This document shows, in pieces, positions 1-7,486 of a stretch of DNA of 7,486 nucleotides. Every line of letters begins with the position of its first letter. Positions within the stretch are counted from its first letter, which is position 1. The stretch lies in NCBI GenBank assembly GCA_000004985.1, contig GG739136.1; one strand, given 5' to 3'. The stretch is from Naegleria gruberi. Lineage: Eukaryota. The position numbers and the translations under genes are program-made. The notes beneath the pieces are model-generated. The model saw nothing but the letters and a program-made list of their open reading frames with translations, was not told the DNA's origin and did no database searches.

Positions 1-330
1 GAAATTAATTGCACAGAGCTGACAGGTTAATAGCCCTTTCTTGATTGTGTGGTGGGTAGTGCATGGCCGTTTCCAGTTCGTGGAGTGATCTGTCTTGTTA
101 ATTCAGATAACGAACGAGACCTAAGCCTTTAACTAGCCGTAGGCCTTTTCCTTCGGGGAAGGGTTAGTTTGTCGGAACAGGTTTCGGCCTGTTCCAAAAC
201 CTACGAGACTTTTGTCAGCTTCTTAAAGGGACTTCATTCGTAAACTAGGATGAGGAAGATTTAGGCCATAACAGGTCTGTGATGCTCTTAGATGTCCTGG
301 GCTGCACGCGTACAACCAGCGAGCGCTATG
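1..330 (+). rRNA. Eukaryotic-type SSU (18S-like) rRNA fragment covering the 3' major domain, partial at the window edge. Degenerate similarity trails on to ~400. The conserved 3' minor domain is missing, so this is likely a truncated or pseudogenised rDNA-derived segment, not a complete functional gene.
   Basis: Read directly against conserved 18S blocks recalled from memory. 'gacaggttaatagccctttcttgattg..ggtgggtagtgcatggccgtt' corresponds to GACAGATTGATAGCTCTTTCTCGATTC..GGTGGTGGTGCATGGCCGTT. 'gtcttgttaattcagataacgaacgagacc' corresponds to GTCTGGTTAATTCCGATAACGAACGAGAC. 'cagcttcttaaagggac' corresponds to CTTCTTAGAGGGAC. 'ataacaggtctgtgatgctcttagatgtcctgggctgcacgcg' corresponds to AATAACAGGTCTGTGATGCCCTTAGATGTCCGGGGCTGCACGCG. 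This is the eukaryotic cytoplasmic signature, not the bacterial/organellar one. Variable-region hairpins are intact (150-162 ccttc/ggg/gaagg; 174-195 ggaacagg/tttcgg/cctgttcc). Several universally conserved positions are substituted. No GTACACACCGCCCGTC or GTAACAAGG/GATCATTA 3' motifs occur anywhere downstream. Confidence 0.7.
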
Positions 331-526
331 GTTTTATAACCCCTTATCCTAATAGGATTGGGAAAACTTTTCAAACAGTAATCATGCCAAGTTTGGCCAA
401 TGGATAACATGGAAAGATTTAAAGCTTAAAACTAGTCATTGTGAGGAGGAGATTTTACTTGTTGATTATTTTGCAAATAATTTAACATTACCAACTGCTG
501 TTGTGGATAGTAATGTAACAGAGATC

Positions 527-1061
527 ATGGTTCAACACTTGAAGGAGTTGGATGGTGCAGTTCTTGTTTGTGAATTTAGCGTTGAGAAGACTGATGCAGA
601 GTTTGATGTATGCTTGTCATTCTTTCAAGTAGATGCCACAATATTGAAACGTATCAGCTCTTCATTCCAAATAGTTCAAGATCTGTTCAAATATGAAGAG
701 TACGGTAGATGTGGACTTATTTTTGAGCTATTGGATGAGTATTTTGTAGATGTACTTTTTTCTATTGATGGAATTGAGTGGAATATCATTAACAGAGGAA
801 GTGACTGGAAATTAATTCAAAAAGATCCAAGCCAATACATTTTTGTGACTCCAAAGTTAGAAAGTGAAAGGGAGTACTTTTTCAAACTTGTGGTCATTTC
901 AAAGAGAAATACGTGGATATATCATGACTTGGGTCAATTATATCCAGAATCAGTACTTTCTTCAGGTCTGTTGCCCTCATTGGTCAATGAAAATGTAAAA
1001 CATATTGTTGATGGTTGTGTCCTTGCTTCAACTCATCCAAACATGTTCCACCTTAAATTTG
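527..1061 (+). CDS. Partial CDS for a hypothetical protein with no recognisable domain. The 5' end is at the first in-frame ATG and the 3' end is truncated by the N-run.
   Basis: The frame is open for 186 codons from 503 to the last real base 1061, long for AT-rich DNA. An in-frame TAG lies upstream at 434-436. The track start at 503 is GTG. The first ATG is at 527 with A at -3 and G at +4. Codon usage is A/T-ending with AGA/AGG arginine, matching the minus-strand gene on the other flank. No motif was recognised in MVQHLKELDGAVLVCEFSVEKTDAEFDVC...HIVDGCVLASTHPNMFHLKF. An upstream exon or a different true start cannot be excluded. Confidence 0.5.
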
Positions 1062-4000
1062 NNNNNNNNNNNNNNNNNNNNNNNNNNNNNNNNNNNNNNN
1101 NNNNNNNNNNNNNNNNNNNNNNNNNNNNNNNNNNNNNNNNNNNNNNNNNNNNNNNNNNNNNNNNNNNNNNNNNNNNNNNNNNNNNNNNNNNNNNNNNNNN
1201 NNNNNNNNNNNNNNNNNNNNNNNNNNNNNNNNNNNNNNNNNNNNNNNNNNNNNNNNNNNNNNNNNNNNNNNNNNNNNNNNNNNNNNNNNNNNNNNNNNNN
1301 NNNNNNNNNNNNNNNNNNNNNNNNNNNNNNNNNNNNNNNNNNNNNNNNNNNNNNNNNNNNNNNNNNNNNNNNNNNNNNNNNNNNNNNNNNNNNNNNNNNN
1401 NNNNNNNNNNNNNNNNNNNNNNNNNNNNNNNNNNNNNNNNNNNNNNNNNNNNNNNNNNNNNNNNNNNNNNNNNNNNNNNNNNNNNNNNNNNNNNNNNNNN
1501 NNNNNNNNNNNNNNNNNNNNNNNNNNNNNNNNNNNNNNNNNNNNNNNNNNNNNNNNNNNNNNNNNNNNNNNNNNNNNNNNNNNNNNNNNNNNNNNNNNNN
1601 NNNNNNNNNNNNNNNNNNNNNNNNNNNNNNNNNNNNNNNNNNNNNNNNNNNNNNNNNNNNNNNNNNNNNNNNNNNNNNNNNNNNNNNNNNNNNNNNNNNN
1701 NNNNNNNNNNNNNNNNNNNNNNNNNNNNNNNNNNNNNNNNNNNNNNNNNNNNNNNNNNNNNNNNNNNNNNNNNNNNNNNNNNNNNNNNNNNNNNNNNNNN
1801 NNNNNNNNNNNNNNNNNNNNNNNNNNNNNNNNNNNNNNNNNNNNNNNNNNNNNNNNNNNNNNNNNNNNNNNNNNNNNNNNNNNNNNNNNNNNNNNNNNNN
1901 NNNNNNNNNNNNNNNNNNNNNNNNNNNNNNNNNNNNNNNNNNNNNNNNNNNNNNNNNNNNNNNNNNNNNNNNNNNNNNNNNNNNNNNNNNNNNNNNNNNN
2001 NNNNNNNNNNNNNNNNNNNNNNNNNNNNNNNNNNNNNNNNNNNNNNNNNNNNNNNNNNNNNNNNNNNNNNNNNNNNNNNNNNNNNNNNNNNNNNNNNNNN
2101 NNNNNNNNNNNNNNNNNNNNNNNNNNNNNNNNNNNNNNNNNNNNNNNNNNNNNNNNNNNNNNNNNNNNNNNNNNNNNNNNNNNNNNNNNNNNNNNNNNNN
2201 NNNNNNNNNNNNNNNNNNNNNNNNNNNNNNNNNNNNNNNNNNNNNNNNNNNNNNNNNNNNNNNNNNNNNNNNNNNNNNNNNNNNNNNNNNNNNNNNNNNN
2301 NNNNNNNNNNNNNNNNNNNNNNNNNNNNNNNNNNNNNNNNNNNNNNNNNNNNNNNNNNNNNNNNNNNNNNNNNNNNNNNNNNNNNNNNNNNNNNNNNNNN
2401 NNNNNNNNNNNNNNNNNNNNNNNNNNNNNNNNNNNNNNNNNNNNNNNNNNNNNNNNNNNNNNNNNNNNNNNNNNNNNNNNNNNNNNNNNNNNNNNNNNNN
2501 NNNNNNNNNNNNNNNNNNNNNNNNNNNNNNNNNNNNNNNNNNNNNNNNNNNNNNNNNNNNNNNNNNNNNNNNNNNNNNNNNNNNNNNNNNNNNNNNNNNN
2601 NNNNNNNNNNNNNNNNNNNNNNNNNNNNNNNNNNNNNNNNNNNNNNNNNNNNNNNNNNNNNNNNNNNNNNNNNNNNNNNNNNNNNNNNNNNNNNNNNNNN
2701 NNNNNNNNNNNNNNNNNNNNNNNNNNNNNNNNNNNNNNNNNNNNNNNNNNNNNNNNNNNNNNNNNNNNNNNNNNNNNNNNNNNNNNNNNNNNNNNNNNNN
2801 NNNNNNNNNNNNNNNNNNNNNNNNNNNNNNNNNNNNNNNNNNNNNNNNNNNNNNNNNNNNNNNNNNNNNNNNNNNNNNNNNNNNNNNNNNNNNNNNNNNN
2901 NNNNNNNNNNNNNNNNNNNNNNNNNNNNNNNNNNNNNNNNNNNNNNNNNNNNNNNNNNNNNNNNNNNNNNNNNNNNNNNNNNNNNNNNNNNNNNNNNNNN
3001 NNNNNNNNNNNNNNNNNNNNNNNNNNNNNNNNNNNNNNNNNNNNNNNNNNNNNNNNNNNNNNNNNNNNNNNNNNNNNNNNNNNNNNNNNNNNNNNNNNNN
3101 NNNNNNNNNNNNNNNNNNNNNNNNNNNNNNNNNNNNNNNNNNNNNNNNNNNNNNNNNNNNNNNNNNNNNNNNNNNNNNNNNNNNNNNNNNNNNNNNNNNN
3201 NNNNNNNNNNNNNNNNNNNNNNNNNNNNNNNNNNNNNNNNNNNNNNNNNNNNNNNNNNNNNNNNNNNNNNNNNNNNNNNNNNNNNNNNNNNNNNNNNNNN
3301 NNNNNNNNNNNNNNNNNNNNNNNNNNNNNNNNNNNNNNNNNNNNNNNNNNNNNNNNNNNNNNNNNNNNNNNNNNNNNNNNNNNNNNNNNNNNNNNNNNNN
3401 NNNNNNNNNNNNNNNNNNNNNNNNNNNNNNNNNNNNNNNNNNNNNNNNNNNNNNNNNNNNNNNNNNNNNNNNNNNNNNNNNNNNNNNNNNNNNNNNNNNN
3501 NNNNNNNNNNNNNNNNNNNNNNNNNNNNNNNNNNNNNNNNNNNNNNNNNNNNNNNNNNNNNNNNNNNNNNNNNNNNNNNNNNNNNNNNNNNNNNNNNNNN
3601 NNNNNNNNNNNNNNNNNNNNNNNNNNNNNNNNNNNNNNNNNNNNNNNNNNNNNNNNNNNNNNNNNNNNNNNNNNNNNNNNNNNNNNNNNNNNNNNNNNNN
3701 NNNNNNNNNNNNNNNNNNNNNNNNNNNNNNNNNNNNNNNNNNNNNNNNNNNNNNNNNNNNNNNNNNNNNNNNNNNNNNNNNNNNNNNNNNNNNNNNNNNN
3801 NNNNNNNNNNNNNNNNNNNNNNNNNNNNNNNNNNNNNNNNNNNNNNNNNNNNNNNNNNNNNNNNNNNNNNNNNNNNNNNNNNNNNNNNNNNNNNNNNNNN
3901 NNNNNNNNNNNNNNNNNNNNNNNNNNNNNNNNNNNNNNNNNNNNNNNNNNNNNNNNNNNNNNNNNNNNNNNNNNNNNNNNNNNNNNNNNNNNNNNNNNNN

Positions 4001-6181
4001 NNNNNNNNNNNNNNNNNNNNNNNNNNNNNNNNNNNNNNNNNNNNNNNNNNNNNNNNNNNNNNNNNNNNNNNNNNNNNNNNNNNNNNNNNNNNNNNNNNNN
4101 NNNNNNNNNNNNNNNNNNNNNNNNNNNNNNNNNNNNNNNNNNNNNNNNNNNNNNNNNNNNNNNNNNNNNNNNNNNNNNNNNNNNNNNNNNNNNNNNNNNN
4201 NNNNNNNNNNNNNNNNNNNNNNNNNNNNNNNNNNNNNNNNNNNNNNNNNNNNNNNNNNNNNNNNNNNNNNNNNNNNNNNNNNNNNNNNNNNNNNNNNNNN
4301 NNNNNNNNNNNNNNNNNNNNNNNNNNNNNNNNNNNNNNNNNNNNNNNNNNNNNNNNNNNNNNNNNNNNNNNNNNNNNNNNNNNNNNNNNNNNNNNNNNNN
4401 NNNNNNNNNNNNNNNNNNNNNNNNNNNNNNNNNNNNNNNNNNNNNNNNNNNNNNNNNNNNNNNNNNNNNNNNNNNNNNNNNNNNNNNNNNNNNNNNNNNN
4501 NNNNNNNNNNNNNNNNNNNNNNNNNNNNNNNNNNNNNNNNNNNNNNNNNNNNNNNNNNNNNNNNNNNNNNNNNNNNNNNNNNNNNNNNNNNNNNNNNNNN
4601 NNNNNNNNNNNNNNNNNNNNNNNNNNNNNNNNNNNNNNNNNNNNNNNNNNNNNNNNNNNNNNNNNNNNNNNNNNNNNNNNNNNNNNNNNNNNNNNNNNNN
4701 NNNNNNNNNNNNNNNNNNNNNNNNNNNNNNNNNNNNNNNNNNNNNNNNNNNNNNNNNNNNNNNNNNNNNNNNNNNNNNNNNNNNNNNNNNNNNNNNNNNN
4801 NNNNNNNNNNNNNNNNNNNNNNNNNNNNNNNNNNNNNNNNNNNNNNNNNNNNNNNNNNNNNNNNNNNNNNNNNNNNNNNNNNNNNNNNNNNNNNNNNNNN
4901 NNNNNNNNNNNNNNNNNNNNNNNNNNNNNNNNNNNNNNNNNNNNNNNNNNNNNNNNNNNNNNNNNNNNNNNNNNNNNNNNNNNNNNNNNNNNNNNNNNNN
5001 NNNNNNNNNNNNNNNNNNNNNNNNNNNNNNNNNNNNNNNNNNNNNNNNNNNNNNNNNNNNNNNNNNNNNNNNNNNNNNNNNNNNNNNNNNNNNNNNNNNN
5101 NNNNNNNNNNNNNNNNNNNNNNNNNNNNNNNNNNNNNNNNNNNNNNNNNNNNNNNNNNNNNNNNNNNNNNNNNNNNNNNNNNNNNNNNNNNNNNNNNNNN
5201 NNNNNNNNNNNNNNNNNNNNNNNNNNNNNNNNNNNNNNNNNNNNNNNNNNNNNNNNNNNNNNNNNNNNNNNNNNNNNNNNNNNNNNNNNNNNNNNNNNNN
5301 NNNNNNNNNNNNNNNNNNNNNNNNNNNNNNNNNNNNNNNNNNNNNNNNNNNNNNNNNNNNNNNNNNNNNNNNNNNNNNNNNNNNNNNNNNNNNNNNNNNN
5401 NNNNNNNNNNNNNNNNNNNNNNNNNNNNNNNNNNNNNNNNNNNNNNNNNNNNNNNNNNNNNNNNNNNNNNNNNNNNNNNNNNNNNNNNNNNNNNNNNNNN
5501 NNNNNNNNNNNNNNNNNNNNNNNNNNNNNNNNNNNNNNNNNNNNNNNNNNNNNNNNNNNNNNNNNNNNNNNNNNNNNNNNNNNNNNNNNNNNNNNNNNNN
5601 NNNNNNNNNNNNNNNNNNNNNNNNNNNNNNNNNNNNNNNNNNNNNNNNNNNNNNNNNNNNNNNNNNNNNNNNNNNNNNNNNNNNNNNNNNNNNNNNNNNN
5701 NNNNNNNNNNNNNNNNNNNNNNNNNNNNNNNNNNNNNNNNNNNNNNNNNNNNNNNNNNNNNNNNNNNNNNNNNNNNNNNNNNNNNNNNNNNNNNNNNNNN
5801 NNNNNNNNNNNNNNNNNNNNNNNNNNNNNNNNNNNNNNNNNNNNNNNNNNNNNNNNNNNNNNNNNNNNNNNNNNNNNNNNNNNNNNNNNNNNNNNNNNNN
5901 NNNNNNNNNNNNNNNNNNNNNNNNNNNNNNNNNNNNNNNNNNNNNNNNNNNNNNNNNNNNNNNNNNNNNNNNNNNNNNNNNNNNNNNNNNNNNNNNNNNN
6001 NNNNNNNNNNNNNNNNNNNNNNNNNNNNNNNNNNNNNNNNNNNNNNNNNNNNNNNNNNNNNNNNNNNNNNNNNNNNNNNNNNNNNNNNNNNNNNNNNNNN
6101 NNNNNNNNNNNNNNNNNNNNNNNNNNNNNNNNNNNNNNNNNNNNNNNNNNNNNNNNNNNNNNNNNNNNNNNNNNNNNNNNN
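1062..6181. other. A run of 5,120 consecutive N, either an assembly gap or a deliberately masked region. It carries no sequence information.
   Basis: N begins immediately after g1061 and ends before t6182, and 6181-1062+1 = 5120. All translated X in the ORF track derive from it. Confidence 0.98.
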
Positions 6182-7486
6182 TCTTATAGCTGCTGGTAAA
6201 TTTGAGGTATGAAGAATGGATCTCAGAATACTGACATTTTGTTTCATAGGTTCCTGTAGTCTTGTTATAATTATAGCTATAAGTTTTGCTTTCTTCCAAA
6301 TATAAATTAAGCCTTTGATAGTAATAATCCTTCCAGTATTGATCTTCTGAGGTGAGCTTGCAAATTCTCAATTTCTTAGAGACCAACTCTAATTTACACA
6401 AATCTGTGATTGTCATGAATGAGAGAACCAATCTGAAAATGTCATCATTCATTACATTATCAAATACTTCAATATTAAATGTTGGCTCATTAACTTGCTT
6501 CTTTTTTTCAACCTCAATCTTGTGATAGGTACCACCAAATACAAAGTAATTCATAGCAATACTATCATCTTCATTGGTCGCTTGGAATGGAACAGTTGTA
6601 TGAAAGACGGGTCCAACATCTTGGCTTGTAAAAGTTTGAGAAAGTGAGTGAGTGTGGGTTACATCCCAACCATTCTTGATATTAATTAAATCAATATAGA
6701 TACAATCCAAACGGTCAATTCTATCATTACAACCTCCAATGGAGTAAAGTCTTTTACCATTTTCTGATTTTTCCAACACCAATGAATGACCAAATCTTGG
6801 AGCAAAGCCATCAAGTTCAGAAATTAATACCTCCGATTGACAAGTACCCTCTTTCACATCCAGAGTAGACAATTTAATCTTTACAAAATCTTTAACAAGA
6901 CCAGTAGCCGATTTACCACCCAAAATATACCAATCGCCAGTTTCCTCATCCAAAACACTAGCATGATAATATCTTCCCTTAAGTTCAACGCTCAATTCCA
7001 TCAATTTCCATTCTCTACTCTTCAAATTGAAAATAAACAATTCATTCGATGGGAAACTGTTGTTATCATCATACCCACCAAACACAACCAAATAATCACC
7101 ATAAATAGTTGCTGATTGACCATAACGTGGAGTGATAATCTCATCACCACTAGGCTCCAGTAATCCCCACTCAAAAGTATCAAATCGATACGACCAAACA
7201 TCATTATGAAAACCATTTGATTTCCCGCCAAAAATTACCATCTCATCACTACAATCATTCGATTTTCTTTTCACTAGACACGAGGAGTGGAAGTTACGAG
7301 CACTTGGTCCCCTATTATGTATTGTCTTGTTTTCCCACTTTTGTGAGGAAACATCCACTTGAATGAGATCGTTTACAAGTAGTTCGGAATTGACAAAGCC
7401 TCCGAAAAGATAAACTTTATCGTTATGAAAGATACCACTGTGACCAACACGAGAGGTTAATTGACCGAGGGGCAACGAAGATGTTA
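6182..7486 (-). CDS. Partial CDS for a Kelch-repeat beta-propeller protein with a C-terminal F-box-like motif. The N-terminus lies beyond the window end and the C-terminal part runs into the N gap.
   Basis: The minus-strand frame is open from the window edge at 7486 down to 6183 (431 aa) and continues into N. The track's TTG 'start' at 7473-7475 is only the first bacterial-type start; codons upstream of it remain open. Six Kelch blades are recognisable from the spaced GG doublet, the aromatic/W and the R/Y/F-G-H motifs: GHSGIFHNDKVYLFGG..W; RNFHSSCLV..MVIFGG..W..W; PRYGQSATIYGDYLVVFGG..W; GRYYHASVL..WYILGG; PRFGHSLVL..LYSIGG..W; FHTTVPF..YFVFGG. These span roughly nt 6456-7454. Then DDIFRLVLSFMTITDLCKLELVSKKLRICKLTSEDQYWKDYY (about nt 6321-6446) fits the F-box consensus (hydrophobic-I/L-x-x-I/L..L..L..L..VSKxW). 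A Y/S/T/N-rich tail follows (YSYNYNKTTGTYETKCQYSEIHSSYLKFTSSYK). Confidence 0.85.

Follow-up and report, generated by a model that had tools for sequence, protein, structure and literature searches.

The question raised by this locus is what kind of protein carries a Kelch propeller ahead of an F-box-like motif rather than behind it. The window, by which we mean the whole stretch of 7,486 nucleotides that was analysed, is an entire scaffold of Naegleria gruberi (contig GG739136.1 of assembly GCA_000004985.1), and the partial protein XP_002668324.1 is recorded on the same scaffold. The visible part of the gene is an uninterrupted frame of 434 codons on the minus strand (6183..7484), which is identical to XP_002668324.1 over the 416 amino acids of the latter and open at both ends, leaving the window at 7486 and entering a run of N at 6182. 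An earlier note on this DNA had read the frame as a two-module protein in which repeats are followed by a C-terminal F-box resembling the PRANC domains of poxviruses and Wolbachia. Our analysis suggests instead that the frame probably covers the N-terminal ~60% of a multi-domain Rho ('Rac') GTPase of Heterolobosea, composed of a Kelch propeller, an F-box, a helical linker of ~100 amino acids, a Rho domain and a farnesyl-type CxxQ terminus, and that this assembly would act as a GTPase-coupled substrate receptor of a Skp1-Cul1-F-box (SCF) ubiquitin ligase, a reading to which we give a probability of about 0.6. Both the gene and its Kelch-F-box-Rac design have already been catalogued and published, and they do not constitute a new PRANC-like class.

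The propeller is the first module of the frame, and sequence and structure together delimit it. Pfam searches with the open reading frame matched PF24681 (5.8e-52), PF24981 ('Attractin/LZTR1 beta-propeller'; 2.4e-48) and Kelch_1/3/4/6 (between 1e-18 and 1e-21), and an AlphaFold2 model of the window protein, computed with a 22-sequence alignment, contained six blades of four strands each, with predicted local distance difference test (pLDDT) values above 90 across residues ~10-320 and a mean of 82. Pfam, the model and Foldseek thus agree on repeated Kelch motifs forming a closed propeller of six four-stranded sheets, and the earlier statement that six Kelch blades come first holds. The propeller occupies residues 1-317 (6534..7484, minus strand); the blades, taken from the modelled strands, lie at 7329-7439, 7161-7286, 6993-7127, 6822-6962, 6657-6785 and 6534-6599 (minus strand), and blade 6 probably draws its closing strands from the N-terminus (7446-7484). 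The best Foldseek matches in the PDB were the Kelch domains of LZTR1 (9mey, 9mez and 9mf0; E 2.4e-19 to 3e-18; template modelling score 0.73-0.75, normalised to the target), all crystallised with GDP-bound RIT1, MRAS or KRAS, followed by KLHDC10, KLHDC2 and KLHDC3 (~1e-16 to 1e-17), FBXO42 (9o04; 1.8e-14) and Keap1 (~1e-14). The modelled propeller is thus structurally of the cullin-RING substrate-receptor type, most of its nearest proteins being such receptors. It is joined to the next module by a Lys/Glu-rich connector (residues 318-343; 6456..6533, minus strand), seen in the alignment to vary in length among relatives and modelled at a pLDDT of 40-47.

The F-box follows at residues 344-388 (VMNDDIFRLVLSFMTITDLCKLELVSKKLRICKLTSEDQYWKDYY; 6321..6455, minus strand), as placed by PF00646, matches across the family, a PDB profile and the hhalign register, and so coincides with the F-box-like motif proposed earlier for residues ~344-385. 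An isolated segment of 66 residues from the window protein scores 23.5 bits against PF00646 (E 4.9e-5), above the curated cutoff of 20.5. When this segment was taken together with its equivalents from 15 relatives, all 16 segments matched PF12937 and 15 of them matched PF00646 at E<=0.1 (best E 8.7e-7); when all sequences of the PDB were searched with a profile built from the 16, most of the proteins recovered were F-box proteins whose alignments fell on their known F-boxes, with FBXO3 first (8.7e-6) and beta-TrCP1, FBXL5, FBXW11, FBXL2 and FBXO4 as weaker matches. An environmental member of the family (P0148) carries at the same position a fully canonical F-box, MPEELALAIFSKLGLRDLCMVGGVCKRWRQISMDNSLW, which scores 49.8 bits against PF12937. 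The family motif aligns in register with it by hhalign (E 2e-4, a weak statistic that involves a single sequence) and likewise with the F-box of SKP2 (E 0.015, also weak). A chance leucine-rich helix, the outcome that would have emptied the earlier proposal, is therefore hardly credible, being effectively refuted by matches to F-box models and solved F-boxes that are family-wide, position-specific and collinear. We conclude that the motif, as judged from these comparisons, is a genuine, somewhat degenerate F-box.

What lies beyond the F-box is indicated by the relatives of the window protein. Its last 46 visible residues (389-434; 6183..6320, minus strand) form the start of a conserved linker domain, which was delimited by alignment and by the model and is collinear with the N. 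gruberi paralogue XP_002672610.1 through residue 452. This stretch is not merely the low-complexity linker described before: paralogues can be aligned with it (TGTY[ED]T ... YL..S.YK), and the model shows a beta-hairpin flanked by two helices (pLDDT 65-83). In relatives the linker runs for ~100 amino acids, up to the GTPase. Full-length relatives share one layout, in which Kelch, F-box and linker are followed by a Ras/Rho domain (PF00071, 1e-28 to 1e-37) and a CxxQ end. They include a protein of 749 amino acids in N. lovaniensis, two copies of 731 and 734 amino acids in N. fowleri, and XP_002672610.1 itself (700 amino acids, annotated 'rho family small GTPase'); further relatives are several Willaertia magna proteins, one of Acrasis kona and some from metagenomic eukaryotic contigs. 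The range of the family, as far as sequence matches define it, is thus Heterolobosea (Naegleria, Willaertia and Acrasis) plus some environmental eukaryotic contigs. The window protein has the same succession of Kelch, F-box and linker: it is collinear with XP_002672610.1 over residues 6-434 at 46% identity, and its identity is 77% with XP_002670347.1* in the manually corrected form that has been published and 42% with the N. lovaniensis protein.

The GTPase domains of these relatives bear the Rho signatures GDGAxGKT, YIPTVFDNY and WDTAGPEDYDRLRPLSYP, a Rho-insert-like segment after TKxD, and WDTAGxEDYDRLRPLSYP. In the Kelch-bearing orthologues of N. lovaniensis, N. fowleri, Willaertia and Acrasis and in two environmental contigs (P0004, P0046, P0183, P0007, P0008, P0024, P0084, P0082 and P0075), switch II reads WDTAGPE[DE]YDRLRPLSYP, with proline at the position of the catalytic Gln61. 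Among paralogues this position is Gln, Leu, Ser or Gly, or the motif is degenerate. Substitutions at Gln61 reduce GTP hydrolysis in Ras. Because of this, the Rho domain is probably atypical and slowly cycling, as in RhoBTB, Rnd and RhoH, and the Pro61 form found in the conserved orthologues is probably hydrolysis-deficient. The C-terminus is C-[LFY]-[LVIM]-Q in almost every complete member, and by the CaaX rules a glutamine at X directs farnesylation.

In the window itself, the corresponding region coincides with its only N-run (1062..6181, exactly 5120 N). This run is a gap left in the assembly of the N. gruberi scaffold that carries XP_002668324.1, and no mask has been applied to the window, so that the 'masked region' of which the earlier note spoke is this gap. 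The NCBI partial model ends at residue 416 (...TGTYETK), and the frame stays open for 18 codons more (6183-6236, minus strand; residues 417-434). As these codons align with paralogues (YL..S.YK), the coding sequence almost certainly reaches the edge of the gap. By homology, the right-hand ~1 kb of the gap would hold the remainder of the linker, the Rho/Rac GTPase, probably split by introns, and the CxxQ tail; it is here that we infer the GTPase of this copy to lie. At the other end, the N-terminus is probably short of only ~3 residues, because a nearly identical N. gruberi protein, XP_002681858.1 (97.6% identity to the window frame over residues 1-335), begins MLL+TSSLPLGQ.

The domain order can now be considered. 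A two-module protein ending in a PRANC-like F-box, as first proposed, agrees with the visible window to the extent that the F-box does follow the repeats, and PRANC proteins (poxvirus, Wolbachia, Orientia and parasitoid wasps) likewise have an F-box-related motif downstream of a repeat domain. However, their repeats are ankyrin and not Kelch, PF09372 has no match at E<=10 in the window fragment and none in a scan of 16 family members, and the motif is not C-terminal: the frame continues for 46 conserved residues to the gap, and full-length relatives continue for ~300 more, including the GTPase. This reading is refuted for the family and is very improbable for this copy. The alternative offered with it, which put the F-box mid-protein and a second domain in the gap, is supported: every full-length relative has a GTPase after its F-box and shows Kelch, F-box, linker and GTPase in collinear order, so that such a domain is expected here by homology. 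An upstream exon that would place an F-box before the propeller is implausible. All orthologues begin no more than ~30 amino acids ahead of blade 1, and XP_002681858.1 starts only ~3 residues before the visible frame; in N. lovaniensis a single exon holds Kelch, F-box, linker and the start of the GTPase, and the preceding gene ends 180 nt upstream of the start codon, which excludes such an exon there.

The label 'inverted' is therefore half right. Kelch does precede the F-box, and the propeller starts within ~10 residues of the N-terminus, so the arrangement of plant FBK proteins and FBXO42, with the F-box N-terminal to Kelch, is absent; relative to the GTPase, however, the F-box occupies its usual N-terminal position with a helical linker behind it, an arrangement shared with the many F-box-Rab/Ran/Rho proteins of Naegleria. 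Many paralogues in Willaertia and N. gruberi consist of F-box, linker and Rho without Kelch, and the corrected F-box-Rab sequences in Table S8 of Herman et al. likewise carry the F-box on the N-terminal side of their GTPase (Herman et al. 2021, BMC Biol 19:142, PMC8296547). These observations argue that the core unit is in the canonical orientation and that the Kelch propeller is, on present comparisons, an N-terminal addition in a subset of an F-box-linker-GTPase family.

That study is a curation of Ras-superfamily members from N. gruberi and N. fowleri, and its Table S8 (Additional file 10) lists XP_002668324.1 as 'Rac' with Kelch and F-box as additional domains, alongside the paralogues XP_002672610.1, XP_002670347.1*, XP_002677266.1* and XP_002672362.1* (PMC8296547). 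Table S8 gives the gene by accession only and holds no peptide strings of the window. According to Additional file 4, the F-box is the commonest extra domain on Naegleria Rab, Rho and Ran as well as G-alpha GTPases, 'pointing to GTPase-dependent ubiquitination', and Kelch combinations are likewise mentioned (PMC8296547). The window frame is thus the same gene, with no difference in kind from the F-box GTPases described there; in the accessible parts of the paper it figures as a table entry and under this general suggestion, and those parts do not discuss the domain order, the change of Gln61 to proline, the CxxQ terminus, the LZTR1-like propeller or the wider heterolobosean range.

On the basis of these predicted domains, we propose a model whereby the F-box docks onto Skp1-Cul1-Rbx1 and the protein would serve as an SCF substrate receptor, with its lipidated Rho tail, of the farnesyl-type CxxQ kind, keeping the ligase at a membrane. 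The place of the substrate-binding module, which in ordinary F-box proteins follows the F-box and a helical linker, is taken here by the Rho domain. In its Pro61 form this domain might either bring in nucleotide-state-specific partners to be ubiquitinated or act as a gate on the ligase, and a second face for binding substrates or regulators would come from the Kelch propeller. The net result would be GTPase-coupled ubiquitination at membranes, a functional parallel of RhoBTB/Cul3. A more specific version, which we regard as rather unlikely, is a self-contained nucleotide-gated SCF receptor in which the LZTR1-like propeller binds either other Rho/Ras proteins in trans or its own Pro61 Rho domain in cis, the latter being an autoinhibition that a signal from nucleotide or membrane would lift. 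Such recognition is speculative and is suggested by analogy, because the closest solved propeller, that of LZTR1, binds GDP-bound Ras proteins. If this version were true, one polypeptide would join substrate capture, membrane anchoring and Cul1 recruitment, as an F-box/Cul1 counterpart of both RhoBTB and LZTR1 with an independent origin in Heterolobosea.

Several observations weigh against the receptor reading, and two rival explanations draw on them. Over the whole window fragment, PF00646 gives only a borderline 19.5 bits (residues 345-374), just under the cutoff that the isolated segment exceeds, in a scan where Kelch is strong. In addition, the canonical Leu-Pro of helix 1 is replaced by Met-Asn in the window protein and by Leu-Asn in the family, at the position that aligns with Leu-Pro of SKP2 and Met-Pro of P0148. 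Many accepted F-boxes are without this proline, so its loss weakens the F-box assignment without excluding it. The motif could nevertheless be a degenerate F-box with no SCF role, which would no longer recruit Cul1 and would act as a structural connector or an intramolecular clamp linking propeller and GTPase, or bind Skp1 in a non-SCF complex; there is a precedent in yeast Rcy1, an F-box protein with a CaaX box that uses Skp1 in a non-SCF complex and works with Rab GTPases in recycling. Apart from the family-wide change of Leu-Pro to Leu/Met-Asn, this explanation would account for Lys-Lys at two hydrophobic positions of helix 1 in Willaertia, for the low Pfam scores of most members (12-24 bits) and for the low AlphaFold2 confidence over the motif. 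Isolated F-boxes typically fold only on Skp1, however, so a low pLDDT is expected in either case, and the motif is conserved in Naegleria, Willaertia and Acrasis, is matched by F-box models in 15-16 of 16 members and is retained in fully canonical form at the same place in P0148. We therefore consider the loss of an SCF role unlikely, although it carries appreciable weight. For any member of the family, moreover, the literature that we searched contained no functional study and no experiments on Skp1 binding, substrates, nucleotide binding or localisation, and nothing specific on Skp1 or SCF in Naegleria.

The remaining difficulties concern this particular copy, whose GTPase domain falls in the gap and is unseen in the window. 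Its sister XP_002681858.1 (98% identical) is marked as a putative pseudogene in Table S8, where it is labelled 'BTB' (PMC8296547), and the sister's model departs from the shared sequence just before the F-box, after ...KKKQVNEPT. The window copy, on a small haplotype scaffold that is unplaced, might likewise be a dead or truncated allele, a Kelch and F-box remnant with no working GTPase. Besides the flag on the sister, such a view gains from the scaffold itself, which is tiny, has a 5.1-kb gap and an rRNA-like start and may be mis-assembled, and from the birth-and-death evolution that Herman et al. (2021, PMC8296547) describe for certain GTPase families of Naegleria, namely its divergent Rab-like clades. 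On the other hand, 434 codons are free of stops in DNA of ~35% G+C (the value to the right of the N-run), all family-invariant Kelch and F-box residues are kept, and XP_002668324.1 carries no pseudogene mark in Table S8 (PMC8296547). A dead allele thus seems quite improbable, and the GTPase-coupled SCF receptor remains our preferred reading. As to the sister, its sequence (P0001) contains only Kelch blades despite the 'BTB' label, differs from the window at 6480 (minus strand; residue 336) by a two-residue indel (HKID-KKK versus HKIEVEKKK), and ends in a 31-residue tail without a counterpart encoded in the visible window.

Comparison with known systems places the family between several established designs. 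Like RhoBTB, it covalently joins an atypical, probably GTPase-deficient Rho domain to a cullin-RING adaptor, and may be both adaptor and regulated element; in contrast to RhoBTB, the adaptor is an F-box (Cul1/Skp1) rather than a BTB domain (Cul3), the GTPase is C-terminal, which reverses the order, and a CaaX tail and a Kelch propeller are added. No BTB match was found in the window protein or the full-length relatives, which do not have the RhoBTB layout of an N-terminal Rho domain and tandem BTB domains, and the true RhoBTB genes of Naegleria are listed separately by Herman et al. (2021, PMC8296547). LZTR1, which consists of Kelch and two BTB-BACK modules and is the Cul3 receptor for RAS, RIT1 and MRAS, offers the closest solved propeller and is similarly a cullin-RING receptor tied to small GTPases; however, sequence identity is 20-22%, the propellers of KLHDC2/3/10 score almost equally, and the present family has no BTB domain and carries its GTPase in cis. 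Plant FBK proteins and FBXO42 contain the same two domain types, and FBXO42 is among the structural matches, but the order is opposite and the present family adds the Rho GTPase and lipid anchor. With respect to membrane placement, FBXL2 is a CaaX-anchored SCF receptor. FBXO10 is a geranylgeranylated one, and prenylated SCF receptors are an established concept (PMC11042265). The family resembles both in combining an F-box with a C-terminal CaaX that would place an SCF ligase on membranes, the difference being that their CaaX follows leucine-rich or other repeats and here it follows a complete Rho domain.

To our knowledge, fusions of small GTPases with cullin-RING adaptors are rare outside RhoBTB. 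The dozens of F-box-GTPase genes in Heterolobosea suggest that amoeboid cells, among them the pathogen N. fowleri with its two orthologues, have a largely unexplored way of linking the state of a GTPase to ubiquitination. How a receptor of this kind chooses its targets may become visible in the Kelch subfamily, since an LZTR1-like propeller and a tail of the farnesylation type occur there together with the conserved change of Gln61 to proline. For the present locus the value of the analysis is mainly corrective, in that a known gene had been viewed across an assembly gap; its architecture is unusual and uncharacterised, though not new.

The left flank of the scaffold is of a different character. 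From the first base of the scaffold, positions 1-417 (plus strand) match eukaryotic small subunit rRNA with 200-203 bits (RF01960, covering 1222-1606 of the 1831 model positions). Agreement is good up to ~375 and poor over 376-417, after which the match ends with ~225 model positions remaining. Naegleria rDNA is normally carried on an extrachromosomal plasmid, so the two sides of the gap may have been wrongly joined in this scaffold, or a fragment of nuclear rDNA may be part of it. An open frame at 357-1061 (plus strand; listed start 503) runs from just past the rRNA-like fragment into the gap and would encode at least 185-235 amino acids; it had no Pfam match at E<=10 and no homologue among 5.8 billion proteins, the flank showed no synteny with the N. 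lovaniensis locus, and this frame may not be a real gene.

Three further observations concern the relatives. A 1165-nt Logan contig (L004, SRR19859314) encodes a protein (P0002) that is 79% identical in blades 1-4 and whose last 57 residues read the F-box region in antisense, as does the plus-strand frame at 6352-6525 of the window; for this reason we regard it as a chimeric or inverted short-read contig of no biological meaning. On a 146-kb contig of the JGI metagenome 3300062347 (L002, 3001-5130), the gene caller has divided an environmental member of the family into a frame covering Kelch, F-box and the start of the GTPase and, 100 nt downstream, a second Ras frame, a split that fits an intron inside the GTPase at about the position of the N. 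lovaniensis intron (L001, 7716/7775). Finally, seven F-box-Rho paralogues of Willaertia magna (P0025, P0026, P0031, P0032, P0036, P0038 and P0039; ABK040_007636 to ABK040_007661) lie on one 790-kb contig, with or without Kelch and some of them truncated or joined to unrelated domains, and this arrangement suggests a tandemly expanding birth-and-death array.
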